This document shows, piece after piece, positions 1 to 15,834 of a DNA stretch of 64,000 bases. The DNA comes from Bryobacteraceae bacterium (GTDB lineage: Bacteria > Acidobacteriota > Terriglobia > Bryobacterales > Bryobacteraceae). Every line of letters starts with the position of its first letter. The first letter of the stretch is position 1. The DNA lies in contig DATJUG010000064.1 in NCBI GenBank assembly GCA_035502635.1, positions 29,783-93,782 on the forward strand, given 5' to 3'. The position numbers and the translations under genes are program-made. The notes under the pieces were generated by a model. That model was not told the DNA's origin and did not search any database. It saw nothing but the letters and a program-made list of their open reading frames with translations.

Positions 1-234
1 ATCGAGCTTTCGCCGCAGCTCGATTCGGAGAAACAAATTACCGCCTACTTACTCAGCTTGCGTAACATTGCGCTGTCATTCCTTGGCAAAAAGTTACCTA
101 CTTCCGGCGTGACTGATCTTGCGCTCTTTAGCGATTTCCGTAAAGAAGGTGGCGGCAGTTCGCTCAGTTGGTACGCCGCCTACTACACAGAACCTCCTGC
201 CGCACGGCTGCCGGACACTGAGGTTACAGGATAA
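1..234 (+). CDS. 3' end of an unidentified protein-coding gene (N-terminus lies left of the window)
   Basis: Frame 1 is open from base 1 to TAA at 232-234 (...SLSWYAAYYTEPPAARLPDTEVTG*). The stop lies only 2 nt before the GTG start of the giant ORF, suggesting one operon. No family recognised. Confidence 0.5.
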   Translation: MELSPQLDSEKQITAYLLSLRNIALSFLGKKLPTSGVTDLALFSDFRKEGGGSSLSWYAAYYTEPPAARLPDTEVTG

Positions 235-236
235 CT

Positions 237-3200
237 GTGGATCTCGACTACATCGCCCAGCAGTTGAACAACAACATCGACCCGGCCTCGCGAAGGCTCT
301 CGCTTCCCATCTCCGTCGATTTAGGCGCGCCCATCAAGCAACTATTCGAGCAGTTTCTGCTCGGCGGCCCGCTCATCCTGAACGAAGCGCTCGTCACCAT
401 GCAGCAGGGGCAGAATCGTGTCTTGCTGACCGGAACCGGCGCCTCATTCCCGTTCGACACCCTTACTATCCGAGCCTATTTCAGCGTCGCCCCGGCTGGC
501 GATGCCGCGGTGCTGGATCTCATAGGCAATGCAGGCAAGCTCTGGAATTTCGCGGTTGCGTTCCCGGCCTTGGCGCCCACCTTCATGCCGACGCTCTCGT
601 TCGCAAGCGCCGCATTCACCCTCCGTTCGATGGAAGAGCCGGATAAGCCCGCTGGCTTGTCTTTCGCCGGCATTTTGAAACTGGATGGCGCATTATCTTT
701 TCTCCAGCCACTGCTCAATGAAACTCAGCTCGATGTCTCCTCGCCCATCACTCTCGAAGCGAACCTCCCCAAAATCAGGCTGACTGAGAATTACTTCCTG
801 GTTACTCCGGGCATCGGAACCTTCGCTCCGTTTCATGTACGGCTCGTCGCCGCCACGGACCCCACCCCGGATGGCGATATCATTCCTACCTTCGGGATTC
901 AAGGCGTGCTCACTTTTGGCGACGCCCGCGAGCTGAGCATCGGCTACGACTTACTCACAATTATTCCCGGCTATTACCACTTCGTCGCCGATTTTCGCGA
1001 AGCCGATCTTACTTTCGGAAATCTGGCGTCGCTGTTGAACGGATCGGATCCAGCACCCGTTTTGCCCGCTGTCTTCTCCGTCCTGAATAACTTCGAATTC
1101 AAGACCTGGGAGATCTATATTGCGGCATCCGGCTTCAGCGTGGCCAATGTCGTCATTTCCGTCGGTACGAAGCAGCCCTGGGAGCTGCTGCCCAACCATC
1201 TCCTGGATCTGAACCTCGATTATCTGACGCTCAACGTGCAGAACACCGGCAAGCTAGCCGTGTACTGCGACGTGCAGGCCACCTTCACGCTCAAGCAGCA
1301 GGAAGTACCGGCTGTAATCATGCTGCGAGCCAGTTACCCCGGCTTTAAGTTCTCCGGCAAGCTGGTCAGCGGCTACCTCGATATTCCCTATCTAATCGGC
1401 CGCTATATCAGCGAAGCCGCCGCTGAGTTAGTTCCTACTTCGCTCCGCGTCGACGGCTTATATCTTGCTATCGACCCGCCCACATCGTCTTACGCATTTA
1501 GCATCGACACTAAAGCCGAATGGGTGATCAAAATCGCCGACGCCAGCTTCACCGTTCTGGAGATTTCGTTCGACATCAGCCGTGTCGCACAGGCAACCAG
1601 CGGCCGTTTCAAAGGCGCCTTCCGTCTCGGCGCCATTGAGCCGCCCATTCTGGTGGATGTTGCTGCGGGCTACACGACGGCGGGCGGCTGGACCTTTGAA
1701 GGCGGTCTCACCGAAGGCAGTAAGGTCACTTTCAACGACATTCTCAACAGTTACTTCCCCGACTGGAACCTCGAGAGCATGATCGTTACACTCGAGGCCT
1801 TCCGCGTCGAGTATTCCGCGAAAACAGGCGCCTATCGGTTCCAGATCAAGGTCCTGTGGGTCCTCGAATTCCTCGGCTGGACGGCCACTCTGCATGGCGA
1901 GTGCGATATCGCCTACACCGAACAGAAAACGTATAAGGGATTCATTCGCGGCACACTGGACATCGAAGGATTTCTGCTTTCGGCCGAAGTTACTTACCCG
2001 GATAAGACCGTCACCTTGAAATTGGGTGACCTGAAGGTCGAATTTAAAGGCGACCCGGTAGTAATCACCATCTCCTTCCCCAGCATCACGCTTGGCGAAA
2101 TTATCACCACCTTAGTAACTGCCGCCATCGGCGAAAACATTACCCTCCCCGCGCCTTGGAATGTCCTGAACCTGATTAGTCTCAAAGATCTTGTGCTCAG
2201 GATTACCCCCAGCAAGCAAATCTTCGAGGCGGAATACTCGCCGAATCTCAACCTCGGCTTCGTCTCCATCGAGAAATTCGTCCTGCGCTACACCGGCGGC
2301 CAAAACTCCGCCAGCAGCAAGGTCGAGTTCGCAATCACCGCCGGCTCTTTCCTCGGCCAACCCATCGACCCCGCCGACCCGGTCAAGATGAACGTGCTCG
2401 AGCCGGCCTCTGCGCCCAAGGTGCCTGGCGCCGGCGACACAGTTTTCACGTTGCATTTCCTCGCCATCGGCCAACGCGTCGCCCTCAAAGATCCGGTCAA
2501 TGCGAAGACCGTGACCCAAGCCATGGAGATCGTTGAAAAAGCCTTCTACAAACAGCAAGACGAGGAGGGCTCGCCCGTCGCCGGCACCGGCCTCGTTCCC
2601 AGTGAGCGCAGCTCCTGGATCTTCGCCATCCGCGCCGAAATTCTCAGTTCCATCACCATCCGCGCTCTGTTCTTCGATCCCGATCTCTACGGCCTCGGCA
2701 TCAACGTCGGCGGCACGAAGTTCCCCAGCTTCACTGGCCTCAACTTCGAGATCCTCTACAAGAAGATCAACGAGAACGTCGGAGTCTACCAGATCGAGCT
2801 GAAACTCCCAGACGTGATGCGGCAGCTCGAATTCGGAAGCGTGTCCATCACGCTGCCGATCATTGCGCTCGAGATCTACACCAACGGCGATTTCCTCATC
2901 GACTTCGGCTTCCCGGCTAACGGCGATTTCACGCGCTCCTTCGCGATTCAGGTGCTGCCGTTCACCGGCGCAGGCGGCTTCTATTTCGGAGTGCTCAGCA
3001 ACGCCACCGCCAAGCGCCTCCCGCCCGGGCCGCTCTGCGGCAGCTTCAGCCCGGTTATCGAAGCCGGCGTCGGCCTGCGCATCGGCTTGGGGAAAGACAT
3101 CAATAAGGGCGTTTTGAAGGCTGGCCTCAGCCTCACCGTGCAGGGCATCATCGAAGGAACGCTGGCCTTCTATAACGACAACCTGAAACGCCCTGAATAC

Positions 3201-6200
3201 GCCGCCGCCGTCTTCTATTACATCTCCGGACAAGTCTCGATCGTCGGCCAAATCTATGGCGAGATCGATTTCGCAATCATCTCCGCGCGCCTCGACGTGC
3301 TCATCCGCATCGGCGTCACGTTCGCGATGCAGGCGCTCGACCCCATCGTGCTCGGCTTCTTCGCCGAAATCACCGTCAGCGTGTCGGTCAAGATCAATCT
3401 TGGGATCTTCAAGATCACCATCTCGCTATCCTTCTCGGCCACCTTCCGCGAATCGTTCACCATCGGCAGTGTTTCGCCCAAGCCTTGGTACATCTGCCCC
3501 GGCTCCACGCAACCACGGGCCATCCGTGCGCGCCGCACCGCGCTCGATGTCTTCGATCCCGGCTGCGACGACGTTGAGCTCGTTTTCCATCCTGTCACCA
3601 GAACAACGCCGCAGGATGTGCAGGTTCTCTTCGTTCCGCAGTTCACCCCGGCGTCGGATGTCAATGGCGGCGTTCAACCGTCCAAAGCCCGCTGCGTGGC
3701 CGCCTTCAACGTCGAGACTTCGACCGGTAAGTCATCTGCCGTCGAGACCGCTTTCGACCGGCTCGCGCGCGGAGTTTTCCTGTGGACACTCGCCGCTTAT
3801 CTGTTCCCGGAACCAAAGAGCACGCCGGAAGAAGATGTGCTCTCGCAAGAGATCACGCTCACGCAACTCGAGAAGCTCTATTGCGCTCTCACCCGTACCT
3901 CCGCAAGCCTGCTCTTCGATGAAACCCAGCTCACCGGCTTCTTCGCCGCCTATTTCAAGTTCATCGTCAGCCTGGCCGAGGAGCAAGCGGACGCCCGCAT
4001 CACCACCATCTTCCCGGCTCTCACGCCATTCATCCTCGTGCCGCCCACCCTGCCGGAAATTCCGTTCGCTTCCTGGCGAATGGTCTCGAGCCAATACCTG
4101 GCCGCCATCAAGAAATACTTCGAGCCCATGCAGGTGGATTACCTCTCGCCCAAAGAGAAGGCCGCGAAAGCCGCGCGCGCCGCCGCAGCGCCGGCTGACC
4201 CCGGCGACAAGTCGCTTGCCTGCTGGATGATGCTCGATTACTTCACTCTCCTTGTGAAAGACACCACGCAAGCCGCCATCGACACCATGACCGCCATGAC
4301 CACTACGGTCGGCGAAGGCGCCACCCTCGGGTCCATCCTGGCGCGCTATCCGGGTTCGGGCGCAACGGTCGAAGAGCTGGTCTGGGCAAATGCCACCACG
4401 CCGCTTTCTCTCAACGCCGGAGTTCGGCTGGGCGCACCCATGGGTGCTGAATACCGCGTCGACGCGAACGGCCCGAACACGCTATTCGGAATCGCGCGTC
4501 ATCACCATATCCGGCTGAACGAATTGGCGCGCACGAATCAGGACGTTCCCGGTCTCTTCCCGGCCGGCCGCCGCATCTGGTTTCCACTCATCGATTCCAT
4601 CAAAGTTTCAGACCTGCTCGCCGCCATGCAAGACCAAAGCGCGTTCCAGCACCTGGCTGGAAGCGCCTCGCGCGTGCTGCTCTCCGGGTTGCGTCCCCCT
4701 GCTCCCAACGACGGCCCGCTCACACCGCTGTATGAGCTGAATGGCCAGCAGTTTGATGCATCCACGCTCCAGGTTGGCAGCTCCTTCAGCCTGAAGATCA
4801 ATGCCGATCTGAAGTGGCTCGTCTTTGCTAAGCCCTCCTCGGACCCGCTCAGTCTCCCCGTCGTCATCAGTGCCGACGAAGCCAACGTTATTGCGGCATT
4901 CAACACCGCCAAGCTCGATCCGCAGATTCAATTGCTCCAGCCGTTGGATCTCTACAAAGTGGAACCGAAGTCATTCGGAGTCGGCAACGCGACTCTCTGG
5001 CAACTGGCCGAGGACCCGGTCAACCGCTCGATCTGGATGCTCCCCCAGAATCTGCAAACCATGCTCTTCGACAATCCCGATGCACGACCCCAAGTTGAGC
5101 TTTGGGAATCCATCCAGAAGAACCCCAACCAGGCTCCGCAACCAATCAAAGTTCCCTCCGCCGACTACACCTGGACATCGCGCATCAATGTCGTGGTGCG
5201 CAGAATTCGCACCCGTACTGGCGACCTGGTGCCCAACACCTATGAAATGCGCGGTGCCGGTGTCGCATTTAGCACGGTGCTGCAAAACTTGCTCACTTAC
5301 GCCACGCCAGATCCGGTAACCGATCTCCATATCCTTTATCTGCCCGACCCGCTCGGCGATTTCCAGGGCTTGCTCTCGCCCGCCGCAACAGCAACCCAAA
5401 TCTTCCTTCTGCAGACGAATCTCTCGACCGAAGCCAACCCGGAACTGTCCTTTGCGAGCGCGGCAGCCGTCACGAACACGTCGTATATCACCGGCATGAC
5501 CGCTCTGGACGTCCTCAAATATGTCTGGGAGGGGAGCGTCGTGCGCTCGGGCGGCTACTATCTCTACTACAAGCAAGTCCCCAGCGGCGAGGGCCTGCCC
5601 GAATACTTATTCAACGACACCGAAGAGACCACCCTCACTCTGCTCGTCACCTTGAATCCTGCCGCGCCCGGATTGTGGCCGTACATGAACAGCCTCCTTA
5701 TGACGCGCGAAGTGGATATTCAGAACACCGCGTTCTATCTGAAGGCGATCGGTCCGGAGTTAGTCGAACGCGTTCCAACCATAGGCCCAGGTTTGAACGG
5801 TTTCAACGTTCAGCGCACCACGCCCGTAACTCCGGACCTCAACGGCGCCGTTACTGCCCAGGTCGCTACGCCATTTGTAAGCGAACTCTATAATCTCCTT
5901 AATTTCCGCATTGCAGACTTTGGCGGATTCGATAGCAGCCCGTTCGCCATGCCGGCCACTCCCGCCGATGTCACCGATCCCGATCCGGATCCCAACGCCA
6001 ATCGCACTCCGCGCCTCGAAACGGACCATTGGAATTATCAGTCCGTCGCGCCCATTTACCGTTTCTCGAAAGTAATTCCGCCGCCACCGTCGGATTTACC
6101 CGCTCCGCTGCCGTCCCCGGAAAAGAATCCCTATCGCGGAATCGGCTCCGATGTACGCTTCGAGATTTCCTGGCTCGATCTGTTCGGCAACCGCATCGAG

Positions 6201-9056
6201 ACCCAGAACACCGGGCTGCAGCCCTCGCTCGATATCCCGGTCAGATACTCCGACAATCTGATTCCGGTGGACAAGTGGCCGGCTGTTTCTACCGATTTCC
6301 TCGTGAAAAAAGGCGCTTCGGCTGCGCAGCTCGATGTTACCTTGCGCTTCGACGCCTGCCGTTATCTCCCACCCTCCAGCGGCGGAACAAACGAGGACTA
6401 CAAGAGCATCGCCCTCGCCGACCGCCCGACTTATGAACTGATTTATTATCAACTTACTCAAACCGGCGTCTCTGCCACTATTTCCTCCACCTTCGATTCT
6501 GCCCAGACGCCGTGCATCAAGCCGCTGGTCGAATGTGCCGTATCCATCTATCAGTTCTTGAATGCCATTGTCGAGAATTCATCCTGGACAATTCCAGCCG
6601 ATAAAGGGATTTCTTTCACGGCAAAAGATACTAATCCTCTGCAGTATTATCAGTTGCTGGTTTCTATTTCCATTGAGCGTCCGGCTGCCCAAATACACGC
6701 CCAATTAAAGGACCCGCCGTTTGATCCCGTGCGCCGCGTCAGCAGCTTCGTTCCGGCCCAGTATACGGAAACACCCACGGATGATCCGAAGGAAAAGCCG
6801 CTTACTTTGCGCGCTTTCGTGGAACAACTGGAGCTCGCCTTCCCGAACTTGGCTGTGGCGACCGCCAAACCGCGCGCCTCCGCGAATGCCGAAAACACCC
6901 TGAAAGAGATTTGGATGGTGCGCTTCGGCGGCACAAACGGCATCGTCTACGATGTCAAACAGCCCGCCTTTTACTTCGCGCCCCTGCCGCTCTCGCGCAC
7001 TCTCCAGTCCACCGAAGTTTCCCTCTATTCGTACAGCAGCGGAAAACCCATCGATCAGGGCACGCTGCAGTCCTATTCGTTCTCGGGCGTCGATATGGAC
7101 CTGCTCGCGAAAACGTTCCTGGAAACCGTCGACCTGGTTCTTTCTCCCCAATTTGTAGTGCCCGCGTGGCTGGCGGTGAATGAAGAGGAACCGAATGCGT
7201 CGGGCCCGAACGCGATTGAACGAATACTCAGCTACAAGAAGGATCTCGCGGGCGCCATCGCTGGAGGGATCGCGCCCGTGCTGGTCGAAGAGCAAAGCAC
7301 GGGAAAAAATCTCGAAGCCGCAACCGCGAAACTACGCCAGCAGCTCCTGATCCGGCTCTCCGACCTGTATTCGGTGCATTGCATCGTGCAGTTCAACGTC
7401 TCCATCGACTCCAGCTTCACTGATGAAGCAACTGCACCGCGCCTGTTCGGCCATCCGGGACCGAAGCAGGCCATCCCGGCGCCCGGCGCGCAAACTCAGG
7501 ACTATTCATTCTCCACGGCGGAAATATCGCTATGCAACAAGCCCGGCGCTTCGCTGCTGACATTCCTGTTTGGCACGCGCGATCCTTCGGCCGCCAAGAA
7601 CGTCACGCTGGAGATGGACTATCAGCGCTCCAACCTGCAGCACGGATTCTCTACCATTCCCGGCATTCCGGACTACGAAGCTTCTTCGTGGCTCGCCTTC
7701 TATCAATTGGAGCAAGCCGAACCCGCGGGGGCGTCACAGAGCGGCCGCACCGATCTCGGCCTCGTCACGGTGCCCGTCCCGCTGCGCGCTTATCCGCCGC
7801 CGCCTGTGCTTCTGGAGCAAAGAGGATTGCCGCAGGAAGCGGTCGCGCTGCACGCGTCCGGCAATCCCGTGCTCGAACTTACGAAACGCTGGGTTTTTGA
7901 ATTTAATTGGACTTACGACCTCGCCGAGCAAGACACCCTCTATAGCGATGTTCAGTTCAACGTGCCTGGCGGAAAAGCAGCCTTCCTCAAAGCCGTACCA
8001 ACCTTGGATCTGCTTGGCGCGCTTCTGCAGTTCTCAACCGTGTATGCTGATGTCCTCCGCGACCTGGAAGATTCGTTGATCGCGACACCCAATTCGGAGC
8101 TTGCGACCGTAACCCTGAATTCTTTAGCCTGGCTAGTCCAGTTAGTCTCCGCGGCGTCGTCCGCATGGCCCCAGGCAAAGACCGCGCTGTTTGTGTTGCC
8201 CGAAGTGCTGACCGCGAACTTGCGGGTCACGCAAGCGCCCGCTACGGTGTCGGGTGTTGATTACCCGGTATTTTCCGTTACCGTGGAGTGCGAAACCGAT
8301 GGCCGCCTCTTGGAACCTACCGTAAGCCTGCCCGGTTTCAAGGCCGTACCTTTGCCCAAGCTTGCTGCCAGTAACACGACTAAGACCTATGCGTATCTGG
8401 ACGCGCAGGCTGAATACTTGCCTTACAGCGCAGGCGCCGCGATTCACACCCGTGGAATTCGTTTCCAGAACATGAATATCCTCGACGAGCAAACCGGTTG
8501 GGCCGGTCTTCACATCCGCCGCAACGAAGTCCTGGTCGAAGGCTATGAAACTAACCCAAAGTTCGTCTATGAGACGCCCGACCTACGCTTCGCCTCGGTG
8601 CTGACCCCGCTCCTGAATCCGGATGTGCCCATTAACATCGCCGATTCCAGCGCCTCGAAACCGGCATCGGACAAACTCTACCATTATCTGTTTAACTTCC
8701 TTTCGGATTTCTTCGGCAGTGCGCCTGACGCTGGCGGCACAATCAAACTGGGCGGAAGTTTTGTCTATGATTTGAACGCCGGGACGGGCCCGGTGCCTCT
8801 GCCCGTTTCCTTGCCCGTCTGGATGACTCTTCCAACTCAAGTCACTACCGGCACAGCCATGCCCCCGGAAGTCACCATTCAGGAATTCTCCCGTTCGCTT
8901 GCCGATTTTATTGTCCCGTGGTTTGCGGACCGGGGCCTTACAGGCCGCATCGGCCAGCTTGCTGTCCAGCTATCTCTTTATTCCGCTCTCGCCGGTAGTA
9001 ACCTGCCAGTCCTCGAATTACAACAATTATATTTAGAAACGGAGTTGATATGGTAA
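237..9056 (+). CDS. Giant hypothetical protein (2,939 aa), function unknown
   Basis: Uninterrupted 8.8-kb ORF, which is very unlikely by chance. GTG start 2 nt after the upstream stop, and its stop is embedded in the start region of the next gene. No N-terminal signal peptide, no Walker A, no HExxH, no YD/RHS, Ig or other repeat family visible by eye. The N-terminal third looks beta-rich and the protein contains Pro-rich linkers. Confidence 0.9.
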   Translation: MDLDYIAQQLNNNIDPASRRLSLPISVDLGAPIKQLFEQFLLGGPLILNEALVTMQQGQNRVLLTGTGASFPFDTLTIRAYFSVAPAGDAAVLDLIGNAGKLWNFAVAFPALAPTFMPTLSFASAAFTLRSMEEPDKPAGLSFAGILKLDGALSFLQPLLNETQLDVSSPITLEANLPKIRLTENYFLVTPGIGTFAPFHVRLVAATDPTPDGDIIPTFGIQGVLTFGDARELSIGYDLLTIIPGYYHFVADFREADLTFGNLASLLNGSDPAPVLPAVFSVLNNFEFKTWEIYIAASGFSVANVVISVGTKQPWELLPNHLLDLNLDYLTLNVQNTGKLAVYCDVQATFTLKQQEVPAVIMLRASYPGFKFSGKLVSGYLDIPYLIGRYISEAAAELVPTSLRVDGLYLAIDPPTSSYAFSIDTKAEWVIKIADASFTVLEISFDISRVAQATSGRFKGAFRLGAIEPPILVDVAAGYTTAGGWTFEGGLTEGSKVTFNDILNSYFPDWNLESMIVTLEAFRVEYSAKTGAYRFQIKVLWVLEFLGWTATLHGECDIAYTEQKTYKGFIRGTLDIEGFLLSAEVTYPDKTVTLKLGDLKVEFKGDPVVITISFPSITLGEIITTLVTAAIGENITLPAPWNVLNLISLKDLVLRITPSKQIFEAEYSPNLNLGFVSIEKFVLRYTGGQNSASSKVEFAITAGSFLGQPIDPADPVKMNVLEPASAPKVPGAGDTVFTLHFLAIGQRVALKDPVNAKTVTQAMEIVEKAFYKQQDEEGSPVAGTGLVPSERSSWIFAIRAEILSSITIRALFFDPDLYGLGINVGGTKFPSFTGLNFEILYKKINENVGVYQIELKLPDVMRQLEFGSVSITLPIIALEIYTNGDFLIDFGFPANGDFTRSFAIQVLPFTGAGGFYFGVLSNATAKRLPPGPLCGSFSPVIEAGVGLRIGLGKDINKGVLKAGLSLTVQGIIEGTLAFYNDNLKRPEYAAAVFYYISGQVSIVGQIYGEIDFAIISARLDVLIRIGVTFAMQALDPIVLGFFAEITVSVSVKINLGIFKITISLSFSATFRESFTIGSVSPKPWYICPGSTQPRAIRARRTALDVFDPGCDDVELVFHPVTRTTPQDVQVLFVPQFTPASDVNGGVQPSKARCVAAFNVETSTGKSSAVETAFDRLARGVFLWTLAAYLFPEPKSTPEEDVLSQEITLTQLEKLYCALTRTSASLLFDETQLTGFFAAYFKFIVSLAEEQADARITTIFPALTPFILVPPTLPEIPFASWRMVSSQYLAAIKKYFEPMQVDYLSPKEKAAKAARAAAAPADPGDKSLACWMMLDYFTLLVKDTTQAAIDTMTAMTTTVGEGATLGSILARYPGSGATVEELVWANATTPLSLNAGVRLGAPMGAEYRVDANGPNTLFGIARHHHIRLNELARTNQDVPGLFPAGRRIWFPLIDSIKVSDLLAAMQDQSAFQHLAGSASRVLLSGLRPPAPNDGPLTPLYELNGQQFDASTLQVGSSFSLKINADLKWLVFAKPSSDPLSLPVVISADEANVIAAFNTAKLDPQIQLLQPLDLYKVEPKSFGVGNATLWQLAEDPVNRSIWMLPQNLQTMLFDNPDARPQVELWESIQKNPNQAPQPIKVPSADYTWTSRINVVVRRIRTRTGDLVPNTYEMRGAGVAFSTVLQNLLTYATPDPVTDLHILYLPDPLGDFQGLLSPAATATQIFLLQTNLSTEANPELSFASAAAVTNTSYITGMTALDVLKYVWEGSVVRSGGYYLYYKQVPSGEGLPEYLFNDTEETTLTLLVTLNPAAPGLWPYMNSLLMTREVDIQNTAFYLKAIGPELVERVPTIGPGLNGFNVQRTTPVTPDLNGAVTAQVATPFVSELYNLLNFRIADFGGFDSSPFAMPATPADVTDPDPDPNANRTPRLETDHWNYQSVAPIYRFSKVIPPPPSDLPAPLPSPEKNPYRGIGSDVRFEISWLDLFGNRIETQNTGLQPSLDIPVRYSDNLIPVDKWPAVSTDFLVKKGASAAQLDVTLRFDACRYLPPSSGGTNEDYKSIALADRPTYELIYYQLTQTGVSATISSTFDSAQTPCIKPLVECAVSIYQFLNAIVENSSWTIPADKGISFTAKDTNPLQYYQLLVSISIERPAAQIHAQLKDPPFDPVRRVSSFVPAQYTETPTDDPKEKPLTLRAFVEQLELAFPNLAVATAKPRASANAENTLKEIWMVRFGGTNGIVYDVKQPAFYFAPLPLSRTLQSTEVSLYSYSSGKPIDQGTLQSYSFSGVDMDLLAKTFLETVDLVLSPQFVVPAWLAVNEEEPNASGPNAIERILSYKKDLAGAIAGGIAPVLVEEQSTGKNLEAATAKLRQQLLIRLSDLYSVHCIVQFNVSIDSSFTDEATAPRLFGHPGPKQAIPAPGAQTQDYSFSTAEISLCNKPGASLLTFLFGTRDPSAAKNVTLEMDYQRSNLQHGFSTIPGIPDYEASSWLAFYQLEQAEPAGASQSGRTDLGLVTVPVPLRAYPPPPVLLEQRGLPQEAVALHASGNPVLELTKRWVFEFNWTYDLAEQDTLYSDVQFNVPGGKAAFLKAVPTLDLLGALLQFSTVYADVLRDLEDSLIATPNSELATVTLNSLAWLVQLVSAASSAWPQAKTALFVLPEVLTANLRVTQAPATVSGVDYPVFSVTVECETDGRLLEPTVSLPGFKAVPLPKLAASNTTKTYAYLDAQAEYLPYSAGAAIHTRGIRFQNMNILDEQTGWAGLHIRRNEVLVEGYETNPKFVYETPDLRFASVLTPLLNPDVPINIADSSASKPASDKLYHYLFNFLSDFFGSAPDAGGTIKLGGSFVYDLNAGTGPVPLPVSLPVWMTLPTQVTTGTAMPPEVTIQEFSRSLADFIVPWFADRGLTGRIGQLAVQLSLYSALAGSNLPVLELQQLYLETELIW

Positions 9057-9847
9057 CTCGACTCGTCTGGCTGGCCATACTATTCGCCGCCATCCAGCCA
9101 CTCTACGCCCAAATACTTGTCAGCTCCCAGAACACGTTGCATCTCAGCGATAGCACACGAGGAGCAACCAAGCGCAAGACCATCCTGGATCAGAATGACA
9201 ATTACAATGTCAACCTTCTGCAAGAAGTCATGAAAACTGCGGATCTGGATGATGTAACTCCAGGCAAATACTATTGGAAGGAAAGCGATCTAAAGGGCAA
9301 ATCAAGCTACAAAGAAACATACGGGATTATATACAGCGACTATCTGACAGCCAATGGAGAAATCGAGGACTACCCGGACGATAACGACGATTTCGCTAGG
9401 CCGCCCAGCGGTGTGATGCTCAAGATGAAGTCAGGCGACTACGTCTGGTTTATCGACTTTCATGCTATTTGGGGCAAAAGCGCAAGCCTGCGCGAGGACG
9501 AGGCCACAGAAATGGCCGAGGTCTATAAATACTTCAAGAATCTGGAGATCAACAAGATAAAAACCACCAAAATTGTTATCGCGGGCGACTGGAATCTGGA
9601 TGCGGACAATGACGGCTTCGACGCCTTGAAAGAACTGGATAAGGGGATATTAGAGGTAACTCCTAACATGGAGACCAGCCTCACAAGGTCAGGCGATCCT
9701 TCGCAGCCCTATGATCACTTCATCGCGGAAAAAGGCAAGCTGACTGGTTGCGTTCTCACGCCCATACCTGACGATGAAGATTCGGAATGGTGGCGGGACA
9801 ATGTCTCGGATCATCGTGGAATCAAGTGCACTTACACGTATAAGTAG
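9050..9847 (+). CDS. Secreted DNase I-like nuclease (endonuclease/exonuclease/phosphatase, EEP, superfamily)
   Basis: N-terminal Sec signal (MVTRLVWLAILFAAIQPLYA/Q). Blocks align colinearly with bovine DNase I catalytic motifs: NLLQEV (LIQEV), SSYKETY (NSYKERY), DFHA (ALHS), AGDWNLD (MGDFNAD), YDHFI (YDRIV), VSDHRGI (ISDHYPV). GGAG sits 5 nt upstream of the ATG. The ATG overlaps the giant ORF stop (ATGGTAA). Confidence 0.85.
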   Translation: MVTRLVWLAILFAAIQPLYAQILVSSQNTLHLSDSTRGATKRKTILDQNDNYNVNLLQEVMKTADLDDVTPGKYYWKESDLKGKSSYKETYGIIYSDYLTANGEIEDYPDDNDDFARPPSGVMLKMKSGDYVWFIDFHAIWGKSASLREDEATEMAEVYKYFKNLEINKIKTTKIVIAGDWNLDADNDGFDALKELDKGILEVTPNMETSLTRSGDPSQPYDHFIAEKGKLTGCVLTPIPDDEDSEWWRDNVSDHRGIKCTYTYK

Positions 9848-9854
9848 GGTGTTT

Positions 9855-10724
9855 ATGCGCGGACTATACTTAGGCATCTCTTTCTGCCTTGCGCTGCGCG
9901 TTTCAGCCGCGCCACCGGTTGCCACAGGCGTATCGTTCACCGATCGCTTTATAGCAACTCCCAACCGGCATGGCCCCGTGATGGTCTATATTGCCGCTAA
10001 TTCCTTTCTCATGGGCAGCAGTCCAGAGGAATTCGGTTACACGCCATACGAACTGCGTCATCCCGTGCAGCTCTCAGCTTTCTCAATCGGTAAGTACGAA
10101 GTCACAAACGCCGAGTTTTGCCGTTTTCTGAATAACCAAGGGAACCAGATCGACGGCGGAATCCCTTGGATTCTAACCGGTCGATCGCATCGTTGTCGCA
10201 TTCAGCAGCACGGCGCCGTCTTCACGCCGGTCCCCGGTTTTGCGAACCACCCGGTCGTGACCGTATCCTGGCTCGGCGCGCGCGCTTACTGCCGGTGGCT
10301 GTCCCAGCAGACCGGCCGCAATTATCATCTCCCGACCGAAGCCCAGTGGGAATGCGCCGCCCGCGCCGGCGTCCGCACCTTGTGGGATTGGGGGAACGAG
10401 TTCGCGCCGGGCCGCCTCAATTGGCGCGGCTATTCGCTCGATCCGGCAACTACTCCGGTCGGCTCCTTCCCCCCGAACGCGTGGGGAATTTGCGATATGC
10501 TCGGCAACGTTTGGGAGTGGGTGCTGGATGCTTTCGATCCGGAGTTCTATTTATATTCGCCACTGAAAGATCCGGTCTTTTTCAAGGACGAGTGCTTGAC
10601 TCCGGGTATCCGCGGCGGAAGCTTCCGCGATAGCCTCGAATTCTGCCGTCCGGGGTACCGGGTCAACATGTGGTGGTGGGGGGATTATGACAGCATCGGT
10701 TTCCGCGTTGCTTCTCAGGCTTGA
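9855..10724 (+). CDS. Secreted SUMF1/EgtB/PvdO (FGE-sulfatase fold) domain protein
   Basis: Motifs HPVVTVSW, AxAYCxWL, YHLPTEAQWECAARAG, GNVWEWVLD and RGGSF are typical of PF03781-type domains. Start chosen at ATG 9855 (MRGLYLGISFCLALRVSAAPP signal-like N-terminus) rather than 9774, which would overlap the nuclease gene. Only one Cys follows RGGSF (EFCRPGY), so the FGE catalytic Cys pair is absent. Confidence 0.85.
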   Translation: MRGLYLGISFCLALRVSAAPPVATGVSFTDRFIATPNRHGPVMVYIAANSFLMGSSPEEFGYTPYELRHPVQLSAFSIGKYEVTNAEFCRFLNNQGNQIDGGIPWILTGRSHRCRIQQHGAVFTPVPGFANHPVVTVSWLGARAYCRWLSQQTGRNYHLPTEAQWECAARAGVRTLWDWGNEFAPGRLNWRGYSLDPATTPVGSFPPNAWGICDMLGNVWEWVLDAFDPEFYLYSPLKDPVFFKDECLTPGIRGGSFRDSLEFCRPGYRVNMWWWGDYDSIGFRVASQA

Positions 10725-12675
10725 GATTTTGGTTTGCGTCCTCGCTGCCGCGCTTCCCGCCGGGGCCGTTACTCATCTTGTGTATTCCCATTCTGGCCAA
10801 CCCGCCCAGGGGCTGTCCGTCGTCGAACGTGCGCCGGAACAGCGTGCCCGGCGCCTCGTCACCGACGAGCTAGGACAGGTCCCAACTCTCCAGGCGGGCA
10901 GCGAAGTCACCATTCGCGATTCGCGCACACACATCATCTTGATGCGCATCGCTCGCGGCGAATCGATTCCCGATCCCATCAAGGTTCCCGAGCTGATCCG
11001 CCTCTCCGGCACTGTTCAGGCCGATCCCGACGCGCGTACCGGCCTGATTGTCCGATACGGCGTTGGCAAGCGCATCACCGCCATGCAGCGATTGCAACGC
11101 AATTACGACCGGTACTCCACACTGAAAGCTCCCGAGAACACCTTCTTCGGTCTGGACCTGCCAACGGCTCCCGCTCATTGGTTAAACGCCACGGTCGATG
11201 CCGCCGGTCGCTTCACCACCAAATGGTTCCCCGCGGTCGACCATCCCATGATCGTCGCTCACAACGCTGCACGCGCGATCGGCATCAGCGACTTCACCCT
11301 CCCGAAAAGCTTCCGCACCGGCGAAACGTTCACGCTCGATCCGCTGTCCCTCACCCCTACCCGAAGTCTCACCATCCGCTATAACGCTCCGCCGAGTCCG
11401 ATAGCCCTTGATGCCGAGGTTTTTCTCAGGGATGTTCAAGTCGATCCGCAACAGCGGGAGTCCGTGCGCCGCGTCCTCAGTGTCCTCGATGCCATTGACC
11501 CGCGCCTGCTCGTCTTTGCAATCGGTTTACGGCCTTATAACATCGAAACGGGCGAAACGGTTATCTCCGGTCTTCCGCAATTTCGCGAAATGCAGGTAAG
11601 ACTGAAGGGCGCCTTCACTCCCGACACTCTCGATCGCACCGTCCAGTTCCAGGGCAATCAAGCCGATGTAGCCGTCTCCTCCGGCGATCTGTTTCCCCGC
11701 GGAGCCTCTACGCTCCTCAAAGGAGTTGTGGTGCTCGAAGATTCTTACGAGCCGGTCAAGGACGCCAAAGTCGTCTATAGCTGCTATCCGGAAAAGGTGG
11801 AAACCACCACGAATGAAAACGGCGAATTCAGTATTCCGGGTGCCTGCGCCGATCGCGATGTCACTTTCTTCGTTACCGCTTCGGATTCTCTTCAACCGGC
11901 TCGCTTCCCTCCTGTGCAGGTGCGCAAGCGAATTCAACCGAAACGGACCTCGCAGCCACTCGTCATCACGCTCCCGGTTCCGCCGCAGCCGGGCCGCTCG
12001 CCTGCGCCGCACGCGGTCGTCTCCATCGGCCCTCAGGAGCGTTTCCAGGCCGAACACGAGCGGCCGCACCTTCAGGCCCTGGAAGGCTCGCCGTTAGCGG
12101 GACTTTTTCGCGGCTCCGCTGTTCCCCCCGGAGCCTATTTCCTTCAGGACTCCCAATATGACGAGGGACCCATCGTTTACGTCTACGAGGACAACATGGA
12201 GGGCGAAATCCCCGACAACGTTGTCAAGGCCACTTGGGAATACCAGTTCGGTTCCAAGATCAGGCTCACCGTCTCAACGACTGGCACTTGGCATGTGCTT
12301 CTCGCCGTCTCTGCGTTCATGGTCTACACCGACGATGCTGTCGATTTGATCGCAAATCAGGAGAAGGAAGTCACTTTGAAGCCGCTGCACTTTGTCAGGT
12401 TTGGTAGCTGGTTGAGCGTCGTCTCAGCCTACCTTCCCCGGCCCGCTTCTAATATCCCGGTTTATTTTGCCAGTCCCGCCGTGGATCCCGATCCCACTGA
12501 GATTGATACTAATGAACTGGGAGTTGCCAAAATGGGCCTGCTCGATACCGACACCATACACGTATTTGTCAGTGATAAGAGGGCGGGCTATTTCGATTGT
12601 GACGTCAAGCTCGATTTTCGCCTTGATGCCAACGTCTTACTCTTGCCCACACCCAGCACGCCCTGCCCGAAATAG
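10687..12675 (+). CDS. Secreted hypothetical protein (662 aa) with a carboxypeptidase-regulatory-like beta-sandwich segment
   Basis: Hydrophobic N-terminus (LLLRLEILVCVLAAALPAGA). Segment VVLEDSYEPVKDAKVVYSCYPEKVETTTNENGEFSIPG resembles CarboxypepD_reg repeats. No catalytic motif seen. The ATG at 10687 overlaps the previous gene by 38 nt; an alternative TTG at 10729 would remove the overlap. Confidence 0.65.
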   Translation: MTASVSALLLRLEILVCVLAAALPAGAVTHLVYSHSGQPAQGLSVVERAPEQRARRLVTDELGQVPTLQAGSEVTIRDSRTHIILMRIARGESIPDPIKVPELIRLSGTVQADPDARTGLIVRYGVGKRITAMQRLQRNYDRYSTLKAPENTFFGLDLPTAPAHWLNATVDAAGRFTTKWFPAVDHPMIVAHNAARAIGISDFTLPKSFRTGETFTLDPLSLTPTRSLTIRYNAPPSPIALDAEVFLRDVQVDPQQRESVRRVLSVLDAIDPRLLVFAIGLRPYNIETGETVISGLPQFREMQVRLKGAFTPDTLDRTVQFQGNQADVAVSSGDLFPRGASTLLKGVVVLEDSYEPVKDAKVVYSCYPEKVETTTNENGEFSIPGACADRDVTFFVTASDSLQPARFPPVQVRKRIQPKRTSQPLVITLPVPPQPGRSPAPHAVVSIGPQERFQAEHERPHLQALEGSPLAGLFRGSAVPPGAYFLQDSQYDEGPIVYVYEDNMEGEIPDNVVKATWEYQFGSKIRLTVSTTGTWHVLLAVSAFMVYTDDAVDLIANQEKEVTLKPLHFVRFGSWLSVVSAYLPRPASNIPVYFASPAVDPDPTEIDTNELGVAKMGLLDTDTIHVFVSDKRAGYFDCDVKLDFRLDANVLLLPTPSTPCPK

Positions 12676-12773
12676 TCAGACTCTAAAATCGGCGGTCACA
12701 AACGCCAACAAGAAATTTTCACCTCGCTCCGTAGCTGCGCTATCTTGTACAACTGAAAAGGCATAGCCTCGAT

Positions 12774-12813
12774 CTACACTGCCTCTACGTGCCTTCTACG
12801 CGACGCCTGCTAC
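12774..12813 (+). repeat. Short phased CTAC(G)-N-GCCT repeats in the intergenic region upstream of the AAA+ gene
   Basis: CTAC occurs at 12774, 12785, 12796 and 12810 (spacing 11, 11, 14 nt), each preceded or followed by GCCT. A fifth CTAC is at 12837. Possible operator array, function unknown. Confidence 0.3.
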
Positions 12814-12935
12814 GCTCCAATCCGTCTCCGCCCGCGCTACATTTTTGACCGAAAGGGTTTGGAGCTCGAAAGCGCGGAATGCCCCTTCTCTTATGGAGAT
12901 GAACTCCCGCTTGACAAGCCCCAAGAGAGAGGCGG

Positions 12936-13967
12936 ATGCGAACTTATTCCTTATCCGGGCGCTCGAGACGCCCTGTTCTGCCAGAAGACCCAGATGGATT
13001 GGCCGCCAGGCTGAAAGATCTGCTCGTCGGTCAGCCCGAAGCCATCGACACCATCATTCCGTATATCCAGATGCACCAGGCTGGCCTCGCGCCTGAAGGC
13101 CGTCCGGTCGGCGTGGTCTTGTTACTTGGCCCCACCGGCACTGGAAAAACGCGTACCGTGGAAGCGCTCGCTGAAGTCCTGCACGGCAGCAGCAAAAACC
13201 TGCTCAAGGTGGATTGTGGCGAATTTCAGATGGAGCATGAAGTTGCCAAATTGATCGGCGCGCCTCCCGGATATCTGGGCCATCGCGAAACTCAGCCCAT
13301 GTTGACGCAGGCCAAAGTCAACAGCGTCGCCACCGAAAGCAGCGATATCTCGCTCGTCCTTTTCGATGAAATCGAAAAAGCCGCGCCTTCCATGACGCGC
13401 CTGCTGCTGGGCATTCTCGACAAAGCCACCCTGCGCCTCGGCGACAACACAACCGTCAACTTTGAGCGTACGCTGATCTTTCTCACCAGCAACCTGGGCG
13501 CGAAATCCATTCAGCGGCTCAATAAGCCCGATTTCGGCTATGAAGCCATGCTGCCGCCGCCGGCCATGGAAGATATGGTCAAGCTTCAAAGCGTCGGCAT
13601 GTCGGCCGTGCGTCACAAGTTTTCACCGGAATTTGTAAACCGCATCGATTCGGTCATCACCTACAAGCCTCTCGACCGCGATGCTTGCGAGATCATCCTG
13701 GATCAAATCTTCTCCAACTTCTCGCGGCTGATCAATCACCGCCTCGGTCTGCGCGGTTTCCGATTGCAGTGCACCATATCCGGGCGCAACCTGCTCCTCG
13801 ACATGGGCATCAGCGTCGAGTTTGGCGCGCGCGAGCTAAAACGCACGGTTCAGCGTAGTTTCATTCAGCCCGTGGCGGCGCTGGTCGCGCAGGGCCAGAT
13901 CCCGCCCGGCAGTACCGTAATGCTCGACGCCAAGAACGGCGAGTTCAACATCCTTCTGCGGCAATAA
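12936..13967 (+). CDS. Stand-alone single-ring AAA+ ATPase of the ClpA/ClpB D2 type (343 aa)
   Basis: Walker A GPTGTGKT, pore loop GAPPGYLGH, Walker [11 protein letters not shown], sensor-1 LTSNLG, sensor-2 GARELKR, and a D2-small-like C-terminus. Colinear with the D2 module of the bona fide ClpB at 37125-39764. No N-domain, D1 or coiled-coil middle domain. GAGAGAGG Shine-Dalgarno upstream of the ATG. Confidence 0.85.
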   Translation: MRTYSLSGRSRRPVLPEDPDGLAARLKDLLVGQPEAIDTIIPYIQMHQAGLAPEGRPVGVVLLLGPTGTGKTRTVEALAEVLHGSSKNLLKVDCGEFQMEHEVAKLIGAPPGYLGHRETQPMLTQAKVNSVATESSDISLVLFDEIEKAAPSMTRLLLGILDKATLRLGDNTTVNFERTLIFLTSNLGAKSIQRLNKPDFGYEAMLPPPAMEDMVKLQSVGMSAVRHKFSPEFVNRIDSVITYKPLDRDACEIILDQIFSNFSRLINHRLGLRGFRLQCTISGRNLLLDMGISVEFGARELKRTVQRSFIQPVAALVAQGQIPPGSTVMLDAKNGEFNILLRQ

Positions 13968-13970
13968 ACA

Positions 13971-14954
13971 TTACGGCGCCCATTTCGTGGATTCAGTCAT
14001 CGGCGCGGCACCGGCAGTGTTCACCGTCATCGTCACGTCCACCTCCCGGCCCGCGCCATCATATGCAAGGCTTCCCATCTTCAGCTCGTCTGCGCCCAAC
14101 TTGATTTCTCGCCGGCTCGAGCCGTCCGTTATGGTCACCGTCGCCCTCGACGCCGGGCCCATCTGCCGGGCATCGTGGTTCCACGAAATCTTCAATAAGT
14201 GGTCGTTGCTTGTCACCTTGAGATCCAATTGCTTCGAGCCGGTAGCGAGCCAGTCCGGCAAGGCCCCGCTTCCAGCCGCCAGCCAAAGAGCGATCAACAC
14301 GATCAGCAATCCCGCCAGCGCGGACCCGATGTACCAATTTCTCGGCGAACGCGCCCGCGATGCCGGCTCTTCGCCTTGCGGGGTTGCGGTCTCCGCTTCC
14401 ACCTCGGGAAGTGCTCTGAATTCAGCCTCGTTGAAGCGAAACTCACGGACCGATGCGTCCTGCGGTAATTCGCCGTTCTCGGCGATGAAGAATGCGGCCG
14501 TACGCGGCGCGCTCACTTGGATCAGCAGCAGAGCGTACGCCGCGCTCTTGAACTCTGTGGATAGCAGGCTTCGATCGGCCAACGACGGCTTGAGCGGCCC
14601 GGGACGGCAATGGCTGCGAAACATCCCTAATGCCGTCTTGTGCTGCGCCCGTGCCGCCTTCCGGATTTCTTCCCACCGCTTCAAATGATCGGGACCGGGA
14701 ATGTAGATTGCGCCATTCTCTGCGCCGCGCGGCATGATCTCGATAGCGTCTATCCGCAGCGTCGGTACGCGCCCGCCAAGCACGTTGCCGATCAGCACGC
14801 CGCCGATTTCGATGTCCAGTTTCTCTGTCCGGTTGAGCTCTTCAGAGATCTTCGAGACCAGATGCAGCTTCAACTCAATCGCAAACCGGGAGTGTTCCGG
14901 GCTCCATCGAATATAAAACGGCGACTCCTCGGCCGCCCGTGGCTCAGACGCCAT
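13971..14954 (-). CDS. Membrane-anchored protein with degenerate MPN/JAB-like N-terminal domain
   Basis: EIGGVLIG (the Glu-GG motif of MPN domains), then RSHCRPGPLKPSLAD where JAMM enzymes have HxHx7Sx2D, so the first His is replaced by Arg. One TM helix (WYIGSALAGLLIVLIALWLAAG) followed by a ~100-aa C-terminal beta-rich domain. The domain call is tentative. Confidence 0.5.
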   Translation of the reverse strand: MASEPRAAEESPFYIRWSPEHSRFAIELKLHLVSKISEELNRTEKLDIEIGGVLIGNVLGGRVPTLRIDAIEIMPRGAENGAIYIPGPDHLKRWEEIRKAARAQHKTALGMFRSHCRPGPLKPSLADRSLLSTEFKSAAYALLLIQVSAPRTAAFFIAENGELPQDASVREFRFNEAEFRALPEVEAETATPQGEEPASRARSPRNWYIGSALAGLLIVLIALWLAAGSGALPDWLATGSKQLDLKVTSNDHLLKISWNHDARQMGPASRATVTITDGSSRREIKLGADELKMGSLAYDGAGREVDVTMTVNTAGAAPMTESTKWAP

Positions 14955-15069
14955 AATTCAAGTTCAACGATACACTCTGTATGTTACGGTCGCTCTCTAC
15001 CTCGTCTCAACTCCCATCGGCAACCTCGAGGACATCACGTTCCGCGCCCTTCGCATCCTGCGCGACGAG

Positions 15070-15834
15070 GTGGCTTTGATCGCTTGCGAGGACACTCGCC
15101 AGACTCAAAAGCTGCTTCACCACTATGAGATTCGTAAACCGCTTGTCAGCTATCACGAACATAACGAAGCGACTCGCACGGCCGAAATTCTCGCGGCTCT
15201 CGAACGCGGCGAATCCGTCGCTCTTGTCAGCGATGCCGGCACGCCGCTGGTCTCGGATCCCGGCTACCGCGTCGTAGCCGCAGCCATCGAACACGGCTTC
15301 CAGGTAATTCCCATACCTGGAGCTTCTGCCGCCCTGGCAGCGCTCGCTGCCTCAGGTCTGCCCCCTGACGAGTTCCGGTTCATTGGCTTTCTTCCATCAA
15401 AGACCAACGCTAGAAGAAAAGCCCTCGAACAACTGGCAAACGAGCCCTCTACCGTGATCGCCTACGAAAGTCCGCACCGCATTCTCGAAACATTGAGCGA
15501 CATGGCGGAAATTCTAGGCGGCCGCCGAGTCGTGTTAGCTCGCGAGCTCACTAAAATCCACGAAGAGTTTCTGCGTGGAACGGCGCAAACCATCCGCGAG
15601 GAACTCGAGCGGCGCAGCGCTGTCAAAGGTGAGATGACGCTGCTCATCGCAGGCTCCGAAAGGATAGCCGACATCGCCGATCCGCTCGCCGAGGTCCATC
15701 GGCTCGAAGAGGAAGGGCTCGACCGAATGGAAGCCATCAAGACCGTGGCGAAACAAATGGGACTTCCGAAGCGTGAACTCTACCGGCTCGTGACGGGGCA
15801 GGGCAGCAGCCTTCCGGACAAACAGCCGCATTAG
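15070..15834 (+). CDS. rsmI: 16S rRNA (cytidine1402-2'-O)-methyltransferase RsmI
   Basis: ACEDTRQTQKLL, SDAGTPLVSDPGY, IPGASA, YESPHR and ELTKIHEE are hallmarks of RsmI/tetrapyrrole-methylase fold. 15070 (GTG) is the first canonical start, but the conserved N-terminal LYLVSTPIGNLEDITFRALRIL is encoded in the same frame upstream (from about 14986). See the rsmI finding. Confidence 0.9.
   Translation: MALIACEDTRQTQKLLHHYEIRKPLVSYHEHNEATRTAEILAALERGESVALVSDAGTPLVSDPGYRVVAAAIEHGFQVIPIPGASAALAALAASGLPPDEFRFIGFLPSKTNARRKALEQLANEPSTVIAYESPHRILETLSDMAEILGGRRVVLARELTKIHEEFLRGTAQTIREELERRSAVKGEMTLLIAGSERIADIADPLAEVHRLEEEGLDRMEAIKTVAKQMGLPKRELYRLVTGQGSSLPDKQPH

Follow-up and report, generated by a model that had tools for sequence, protein, structure and literature searches.

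The left end of a 64,000-nucleotide stretch of DNA from a Bryobacteraceae bacterium raises the question of what is built from the 2,939-amino-acid product (GIANT) of a single open reading frame, and of which genes around that frame belong to the same system. The stretch, referred to here as the window, corresponds to positions 29783-93782 of contig C64 of the genome G000 (6.39 Mb, 143 contigs, 96% complete), and positions are given in window numbering unless a locus with an L prefix or a C64 contig coordinate is named. DNA of this genome turns up in wetland and soil metagenomes, which points to a wetland or soil organism. The initial annotation of the window had proposed an undescribed system of GIANT together with a nuclease, a protein of the formylglycine-generating enzyme (FGE) fold, a 662-amino-acid protein, a Clp-type ATPase and an MPN-like membrane protein. 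In this study we find that window positions 1-12,840 form the right-hand portion of a module gained by horizontal transfer, whose conserved core consists of GIANT and the 1,120-amino-acid product of the gene before it (P1120), two cotranslationally packed proteins without Sec signals. We are highly confident of this composition and of leaving the ATPase and MPN-like genes outside the module.

P1120 is the universal partner of GIANT, and only a fragment of 78 codons at its 3' end falls within the window (1-234, + strand). The system had been supposed to run on beyond the left edge, as indeed it does: the contig reaches 29.8 kb further in that direction, and the cut gene is that of the complete P1120 (P0128; L003 12654-16016, which is C64 26654-30016). 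GIANT (P0001; 237-9056, + strand) begins with a GTG at 237, leaving a gap of 2 nucleotides after the P1120 stop at 234. Full-length homology joins P1120 to the product of the gene upstream of the giant in Flavobacterium pallidum (33% identity, E 9e-169), and of 80 giant loci 69 have a P1120 homologue upstream of the giant, the others being mostly short contigs. In a census in which carriers were divided by likeness band, P1120 was found within 10 kb in 57 of 63, 57 of 72 and 3 of 12 carriers, and in none at random places. The retrieved homologues of P1120 are all named hypothetical and are without any Pfam domain. P1120 itself has no match in Pfam, NCBIfam, PADLOC or PHROGs, and against PDB sequences it gave one chance-level row as a single sequence (E 0.97) and nothing as a profile. 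Paralogy of the two core proteins was considered and discarded, as neither BLAST nor hhalign finds similarity between them. Signal peptides were judged by a crude hydropathy test of the N-termini, with 2.2 as the mark for families; GIANT scores 1.3, and hydrophobic N-termini were seen in 1 of 120 giants and 1 of 64 P1120s.

Homologues of GIANT, of which 312 were retrieved, are 2,476 to 4,416 amino acids long and are named only 'LysM domain-containing' or 'hypothetical'; in a Bacteroidota subgroup that has two small proteins (c111 and c156) in place of the slot enzyme described below, the giant is split into proteins of about 500 and 2,850 amino acids. That the system is apparently undescribed is borne out by the family searches, in which GIANT matches no described family in Pfam, NCBIfam, PADLOC or PHROGs, and in which neither core protein matches the families of extracellular contractile injection systems (eCIS), type VI secretion systems (T6SS), Tc, Rhs or AsmA. 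DUF6603, suggested by a protein atlas, was rejected, its hidden Markov model matching nothing in the genome at E <=1; no paper was found mentioning it. A scan of one genome per species brought up at least 546 giant loci, including those of Bacteroidota, Acidobacteriota, Chloroflexota, Pseudomonas, Streptomyces, Glycomyces and Novosphingobium, and in the census the giant is present in 147 of 36,145 genera (about 0.4%) and in 20 phyla. The carriers include many groups that glide, prey or compete in soil (Chitinophaga, Flavobacterium, Saprospiraceae, Herpetosiphonaceae, Polyangia, Bradymonadia, Streptomyces and Pseudomonas), and monoderms are represented by Streptomyces, Glycomyces, Clostridia and Chloroflexia. 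The first 1,200 residues of GIANT find no match in 24 genomes of the same genus, nor in 16 of the same order. Among 2.9 million viral contigs four hold a relative, each at the contig end, and these matches are probably host flank.

The two closest giant loci (L005 and L008), which come from other metagenomes, show what else travels with the pair in this branch. Both have in the same order a GT1 glycosyltransferase, a Kelch protein, a protein of about 1,120 amino acids, the giant, an enzyme of the endonuclease/exonuclease/phosphatase (EEP) type of about 270 amino acids, an FGE-fold protein and a protein of about 660 amino acids, followed by unrelated genes. The succession from the giant to the gene for about 660 amino acids is thus conserved in two relatives at 63% and 46% identity. 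In the wider neighbourhoods of giant homologues the nuclease is there in varying types, the FGE-fold gene is lineage-specific and the ATPase is absent from all 80 wider loci.

To the right, the module ends within the spacer of 260 nucleotides (12676-12935) that precedes the ATPase gene. In tblastx comparisons with the ATPase regions of three congeners, similarity starts at C64 42624-42700, corresponding to window 12842-12918, and in an unrelated soil metagenome the contigs part from this sequence at 12921. Since synteny starts in the spacer, the right edge of the acquired region must lie there, at about 12842-12921, and the ATPase (P0005; 12936-13967, + strand) and the convergent MPN-like gene (P0006; 13971-14954, - strand) are flank, a gene pair conserved across the genus. 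Both had been counted as members of the system, and neither can be kept as such. Of 18 congeners searched, 16 have a full-length ATPase orthologue that is 76-96% identical and 11 have the MPN-like gene, which adjoins the ATPase gene convergently in 8 as judged by coordinates; none of the congeners with these genes matched GIANT. The MPN-like gene, like the ATPase gene, is also missing from L005, L008 and the 80 wider loci. A seven-gene model, in which the Clp-type unfoldase and the MPN-like protein serve GIANT, draws on proximity only, that is, on the short spacer, on the ATPase being encoded on the same strand and on a single contig across the junction. Given the distribution of both genes and a synteny with relatives that begins upstream of the ATPase start codon, we consider this model very improbable indeed. 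A 12-kb contig of the probable source sample spans 8107-16000, which is evidence of assembly continuity only.

The domain identity of the ATPase gene was rightly called, with AAA_2 at 2.8e-36 and ClpB_D2-small at 2.7e-10. The protein, 343 amino acids long, covers only positions 560-851 of the ClpB model, scoring 210 bits against a cut-off of 1232, and judged by its sequence it is a stand-alone D2-type ring module lacking the N-domain, AAA-1 and middle domain of ClpB/Hsp104. A full-length ClpB-type gene (an open frame of about 899 amino acids) is present elsewhere in the window, in the 66973-67836 region on the - strand, so that the 343-amino-acid ATPase is not a piece of the housekeeping ClpB but represents an additional, D2-only paralogue. 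Paralogues of the ATPase with 45-57% identity are present in every relative, and weak matches connect it to PDC-M37B and DolB of PADLOC. For P0006, the MPN-like label has in its favour a weak PADLOC match to JAB (E 0.0013) and an EIGGVLIG motif, but it receives no support from Pfam; the first His of the JAMM motif is apparently replaced (RSHC at residues 113-116). The spacer had been described as carrying phased short repeats, and two 11-nucleotide copies were found (TRF score 33) but nothing more extensive. Short CTACG-containing repeats, spaced by about 11 nucleotides, are seen at 12760-12830, just left of the start of synteny with relatives; they could be what is left of the insertion joint, or could have a regulatory role.

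Beside the core pair stands an enzyme that changes from one lineage to another. Neighbour clustering revealed a slot, usually placed between P1120 and the giant, of which the local version is a 265-amino-acid phosphodiesterase with a Sec signal (P0002; 9050-9847, + strand); its ATG and the GIANT stop share the sequence ATGGTAA, an overlap of 7 nucleotides. The earlier reading of P0002 as a DNase I-like nuclease agrees with its family matches (Exo_endo_phos E 2.9e-4 and the MnuA nuclease family 5.7e-11, both below the curated cut-offs) and with a set of catalytic motifs that can be read in the protein (SQN26, LLQEV56, DFHAIW136, GDWNLD179 and SDH253). Slot proteins of three clusters (c348, c461 and c14) have invariant N, E, H, D-x-N, D-N and H in alignment, and the profile made from them (A3) matches DNase I at 6e-12 and P0002 at E 8.6e-5. 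By these residues, P0002 and the slot proteins belong to the DNase I-like EEP superfamily and are predicted nucleases. Other slot types are enzymes of the metallo-beta-lactamase (MBL) fold and of the HNH and phospholipase D (PLD) types. HxHxDH, marking the MBL type, occurs in 12 of 38 short slot proteins, and the MBL genes are often in tandem and often have signal peptides. In many other loci the slot EEP is without a signal and predicted to be cytoplasmic, a Sec-type N-terminus being found on the EEPs of the present branch. The enzyme can also be fused to either core protein. In an actinomycete metagenome-assembled genome P1120 and an EEP form a single open reading frame of 1,827 amino acids (L081 4130-9613), and in Niastella yeongjuensis DSM 17621 an MBL domain (residues 60-390) is fused at the N-terminus of a giant of 3,113 amino acids (L046 8549-17890).

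The nuclease had been called swappable, and this is true across the family, where EEP, MBL, HNH and PLD enzymes alternate, but not among close relatives, in which the EEP gene is orthologous; the orthologues of P0002 stand directly 3' of the giant in L005 and L008. The gene was also thought to be compositionally foreign. Its GC content is indeed 0.49 against 0.58-0.60 in its neighbours, but this does not prove a recent swap: in the two related loci the orthologue likewise has a GC content 2-4 points lower than that of its giant, and the dip is therefore partly a trait of the gene family. Tandem slot paralogues resembling cassette arrays were seen in a Microscillaceae locus with four non-MBL modules of about 520 amino acids and in Chitinophagales with two or three signal-peptide MBL genes (L075 3150-9473, L063 5557-9423 and L102 6897-9424). 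Two small conserved proteins (c111/c156), neither of which matches a family, are encoded 5' of P1120 in L036 (3587-4420) and in a further 18 loci of Bacteroidota, one of about 110 amino acids and no signal, the other of about 150 amino acids with a signal peptide, and no nuclease gene is found in the fetched stretches.

The behaviour of this slot is what brings an intracellular anti-phage or anti-plasmid system into consideration, one in which P1120 and GIANT would act as a cytoplasmic sensor or scaffold and unleash the nuclease on infection. Known defence systems, among them Lamassu, Avs and CBASS, typically have effectors that can be swapped. The module shares with these the exchange of its effector among unrelated nuclease folds, four superfamilies in all, with no adjoining immunity gene, as well as a sporadic and mobile occurrence that extends over 20 phyla and passes over the congeners, in which the giant was not found. 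Sec signals are missing from all core parts and from most slot EEPs, and the region that houses the module, with a tRNA-Arg gene 13 kb away, is variable. However, the SMC, STAND and cyclase sensors of the known systems are missing from the module, and the core proteins have no NTPase, sensor or other Pfam domain. PADLOC-DB v2 has no match to P0001, P0128, P0002, P0003 or P0004, and only the flanking ATPase and MPN-like protein match it, weakly. LysM, collagen/Kelch fibres, glycosyltransferases, a Tectonin lectin and Sec-exported nucleases (here, and the MBL enzymes of Chitinophagales) suggest an extracellular site of action instead. Nor is there a defence island: 140 randomly drawn neighbour proteins comprised regulators, glycosyltransferases and proteins sorted by the type IX secretion system, and only a handful of them matched PADLOC. 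On balance a defence function appears unlikely, while still deserving serious attention.

Predicted structures provide a second view of the core. Models made with AlphaFold2 cover residues 1-1200 and 1740-2939 of GIANT. The first, built from an alignment of 101 sequences (pLDDT 83.8), is nearly all beta and includes the most conserved core of the protein (residues 733-1078; 2433-3470, + strand), defined by invariant columns in alignment A1 and by the model, with the motifs FEILYKK at 837, TNGDF at 882 and GAGGFYFG at 911. Here antiparallel strands about 20 residues long are predicted to form a curved, porin-like sheet. VIA-align superimposes this core on OccAB1 (5dl5) with Z 12.2-12.4 and rmsd 5.7-6.3 A over 238-248 residues, and on OprD, OprP, BcsC, BamA and CdiB with Z 10-12. 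The second model (the C-terminal 1,200 residues; 5454-9053, + strand) predicts a compact mixed alpha/beta fold (pLDDT 84.3, pTM 0.73) for which no solved analogue was found, Foldseek giving TM scores mostly <=0.10 with a maximum of 0.15, and VIA a best Z of 7.8 that is confined to an Ig-like subdomain. For the two models together, Foldseek searches of the PDB returned TM scores mostly <=0.13, with a few short-target rows higher (ApoB-100, LptD, SlpA, complement/A2M and mastigoneme), and searches of the viral structures in BFVD gave no convincing match to P1120 or GIANT, with TM <=0.16 for long matches. In predicted structure, then, the porin-like beta-sheet core (Z about 12) is the only recognisable part of GIANT.

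The initial annotation had stated that the giant has neither a signal peptide nor a motif that could be placed. The absence of a Sec signal stands, but in mid-protein there is a LysM-like region (residues 1355-1434; 4299-4538, + strand), which is weak in GIANT itself (Pfam E 0.067; PDB-sequence match to the LysM cell-wall-binding protein 4uz2, E 0.023). PF01476 (LysM) is precomputed on most GIANT homologues and is significant there. In PDB sequence searches GIANT found only this LysM protein and the A1 profile two chance-level rows (E >=0.6). Among 120 homologues in the matches listed, BLAST cover of GIANT is lower over the first 250 or so and the last 40 residues and high in between.

These features allow several known protein classes to be compared with GIANT. 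The curvature predicted for its most conserved 350 residues resembles that of outer-membrane beta-barrels (OprD/Occ porins, Omp85/TpsB and BcsC), but the sheet of GIANT lies in mid-protein without a signal peptide, and the family also occurs in monoderms. Proteins of this class are marked by a Sec signal, BAM-dependent insertion in a diderm outer membrane and a closed barrel, and the likeness of GIANT to them is one of fold only. Tc (ABC) toxins are likewise multi-gene sets of 1,000-3,000-residue proteins without Sec signals, and carriage of an enzyme across a membrane, which for the module is proposed only, may be listed as a further shared trait. GIANT as modelled, however, is rich in beta structure and is not an alpha-helical shell of the TcA type; neither P0001 nor P0128 has a Pfam match to VRP1, TcA_TcB_BD, RHS/YD or SpvB, and Foldseek comparisons with Tc BC cocoons gave marginal rows (4igl_B E 0.03, with TM 0.06-0.09), a row to Tse5 (E 0.026, TM below 0.1) being marginal too. 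Bridge lipid-transfer proteins of the AsmA/TamB type have a family of their own (AsmA/DUF490), an N-terminal membrane anchor and a continuous beta-taco groove; GIANT gave no such Pfam match and has no hydrophobic N-terminus, and LPD-3, ApoB-100 and LptD appeared in Foldseek as low-TM rows (0.07-0.13).

The remaining genes on the right of the module are specific to its lineage. All open reading frames, gaps and overlaps reported earlier were found again in place, with the junction bases read directly. The gene for the FGE-sulfatase-fold, PvdO-like protein of 289 amino acids (P0003; 9855-10724, + strand) starts 7 nucleotides after the EEP end at 9847, an alternative open ATG being available at 9774, and its end overlaps by 38 nucleotides the gene for the 662-amino-acid protein (P0004; 10687-12675, + strand). 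All three genes after GIANT had been credited with Sec-type signals, which holds for the EEP (2.81) and the 662-amino-acid protein (3.22); the FGE-like protein is borderline (2.05, below the 2.2 mark). The fold of P0003 was correctly recognised, the Pfam FGE-sulfatase profile (PF03781) matching over its whole length at 2.9e-50, and among solved structures PvdO (5hha) is nearest, at 2.4e-27, with true FGEs following at about 1e-21. True FGEs have a catalytic copper-binding cysteine pair; by eye, P0003 has a single Cys in the C-terminal motif region (…LEFCRPGYR…), as placed approximately relative to human FGE. The FGE-fold gene has the same position in L005 and L008 and lies beside an EEP in L091. 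The 662-amino-acid protein has a weak CarboxypepD_reg-like domain; genes for 667 and 658 amino acids hold its position in L005 and L008, and the 80 wider loci yielded no homologue. The two genes are accessories of an acidobacterial/proteobacterial branch and not part of the core. A scan of the locus for promoters and terminators gave counts at chance level. Beyond the flanking pair, the housekeeping genes rsmI, hemH and pyk are confirmed as a TP_methylase of the rsmI type, a ferrochelatase and a pyruvate kinase, and BacA is also encoded downstream.

On the other side, 7 nucleotides 5' of P1120, lies the gene for a fibre-like 656-amino-acid protein with a collagen triple helix and a Kelch propeller head, which matches phage tail-fibre PHROGs through its collagen repeats. 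It is preceded by a GT1 glycosyltransferase and a Tectonin-domain protein, and all three count as lineage-specific accessories. Collagen-like proteins were found by neighbour clustering in 18 loci and glycosyltransferases in 10; none of 20 collagen proteins has a hydrophobic N-terminus. The Tectonin protein, a beta-propeller lectin with the lipobox LSGC (L003 8403-9260), heads the cluster only in this genome, and no counterpart was found in related loci. Just 3' of the Flavobacterium pallidum giant there is a gene with a MACPF pore-forming domain, together with one for a 1,459-amino-acid multi-glycosyltransferase (L006 26774-28360). Farther left in the present contig are divergent PilZ and BlaI/BlaR1 genes, a TonB-type receptor, tRNA-Arg(TCG), GH127 and CYTH genes and a MoxR-DUF58-BatA-VWA operon. 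The tRNA gene (L003 2900-2976, C64 16900-16976) is 12.9 kb left of the window. In congeners the CYTH gene lies about 240 nucleotides from tRNA-Arg(TCG), and here the GH127 gene intervenes. When congeners were searched at the nucleotide level for the region between the tRNA and the ATPase, the TonB-type receptor gene and a short part of the PilZ gene were all that matched. The congeners also differ from one another in their synteny upstream of the ATPase, so that no left edge of the island could be read from them.

The surface character of many of these parts might be explained by an envelope or matrix complex that handles extracellular DNA or other phosphodiester polymers. Its scaffold, anchored to peptidoglycan, would hold a secreted nuclease in place, and its purpose would be to scavenge nutrients, to remodel biofilms or to take up DNA. 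The locus does encode a LysM region, a Sec-exported DNase I-like enzyme, a PvdO/FGE-fold protein and a secreted protein of the CarboxypepD_reg type, its host is from wetland or soil, and MBL slot enzymes elsewhere have a FLDVGQGD...HxHxDH signature, which we take to be of the ComEC type. Such a role fits poorly with a scaffold that has no export signal. An occurrence in 0.4% of genera, with absence from the congeners searched, would be odd for a housekeeping or nutritional trait, and both the collagen/Kelch fibres and the fusions of enzyme and giant would be left unexplained. We regard this explanation as improbable.

Systems that carry toxins to other cells offer further parallels. Tailocins and eCIS (Afp, PVC) resemble the module in their large Sec-less parts, in a LysM-bearing structural protein, in the tail-fibre-like PHROG matches of the collagen proteins, in their association with toxins or nucleases and in a patchy horizontal spread among environmental bacteria. 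They differ in that the module and 30 kb upstream have no sheath, tube, gp25, Baseplate_J, VgrG, PAAR, cap or AAA+ assembly ATPase. The absence of sheath, tube, VgrG, PAAR, Rhs, Tc and T6SS signatures noted for the window is upheld by Pfam scans and now extends 29.8 kb to the left, where no sheath, tube, baseplate, spike or secretion-system gene was found; no eCIS, T6SS or tailocin family appears in these scans, which run from L003 843 to window 14954 and include the upstream L002 genes, the rest of the genome being outside them. With polymorphic toxins and nuclease bacteriocins (Rhs, CDI, colicin E-type and pyocin S) the module has in common exchangeable nucleases, HNH and others, on a conserved chassis and a horizontal spread. 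In polymorphic toxin systems the toxin domain is C-terminal on a trafficking or stalk protein and is followed by the cognate immunity gene (Zhang et al. 2012, PMC3482391). The enzyme of the module, in contrast, is mostly the product of a separate gene and not a C-terminal tip, or in single cases is N-terminal on GIANT or C-terminal on P1120. Its chassis is in no described family, RHS/YD, filamentous haemagglutinin, PAAR and colicin translocation domains are lacking, and no adjoining immunity gene was seen.

We tentatively favour the interpretation that the module makes a released or surface-bound complex which delivers or presents a nuclease in competition or predation, with a logic like that of tailocins, eCIS and nuclease bacteriocins and with no homology to them. 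It is preferred because of the collagen fibres, glycosyltransferases, LysM, porin-like sheet and large parts without Sec signals, and because of the lifestyles of many carriers and the defence-poor neighbourhood. In such a device P1120 and GIANT would assemble into a large extracytoplasmic scaffold, either released or bound to the surface. The glycosylated collagen/Kelch fibre and the Tectonin lectin would attach it to the target surface, LysM would hold peptidoglycan or another polymer of GlcNAc, the conserved porin-like amphipathic sheet would engage the membrane and the DNase would be the payload. Tailocin and eCIS parts are likewise made without Sec signals. A more far-reaching form of the proposal is that P1120 and GIANT are the chassis of an unrecognised class of weapon, unrelated to phage tails, Tc, Rhs and the numbered secretion systems, which carries an exchangeable DNase to target cells by means of collagen-like fibres, LysM and the porin-like sheet and has spread horizontally over at least 20 phyla; this we think possible but doubtful.

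Several observations weigh against a delivery device. In the neighbour census no export route, holin, lysin, transporter or lysis cassette recurs beside the core. At the present locus the EEP, FGE-like, 662-amino-acid and Tectonin proteins are Sec or lipoprotein substrates and the scaffold is not, so that payload and scaffold would be made in different compartments here. No immunity-like gene was seen beside the signal-less EEPs, the gene maps leaving no room for one between slot enzyme and giant, although no systematic search was made. A signal-less EEP without an immunity neighbour is unusual for a nuclease weapon, and a regulated intracellular effector fits it better. About a third of the loci, those of the c111/c156 Bacteroidota type or with neither, have no nuclease in the fetched stretch. 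The likeness to porins is at the level of the fold, with rmsd about 6 A and sequence identity of 5-10%, and the open belt of ApoB-100 aligns to the GIANT core as well as porins do (Z 11.4).

No published description of either core family was found in a keyword-based full-text literature search. We rate the module as categorically new, being neither an eCIS, a Tc or Rhs system, a polymorphic toxin, an outer-membrane protein nor a known defence system, a rating for which the literature was searched by keyword, four-fifths of GIANT was modelled and P1120 was compared by sequence. Removal of the Clp-like ATPase and the MPN-like gene from the module disposes of a false lead. What remains, a nuclease swapped among four unrelated folds beside a linked pair of giant genes, is the signature of a machine for biological conflict. 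Cultured carriers exist among strains of Flavobacterium, Chitinophaga, Pedobacter, Pseudomonas and Streptomyces, so that the question can be tested in cultivable organisms. As a defence system the module would be exceptionally large and would have no known sensor domain; as a delivery device it would represent a bacterial weapon of a new type and might serve as a chassis for protein delivery.

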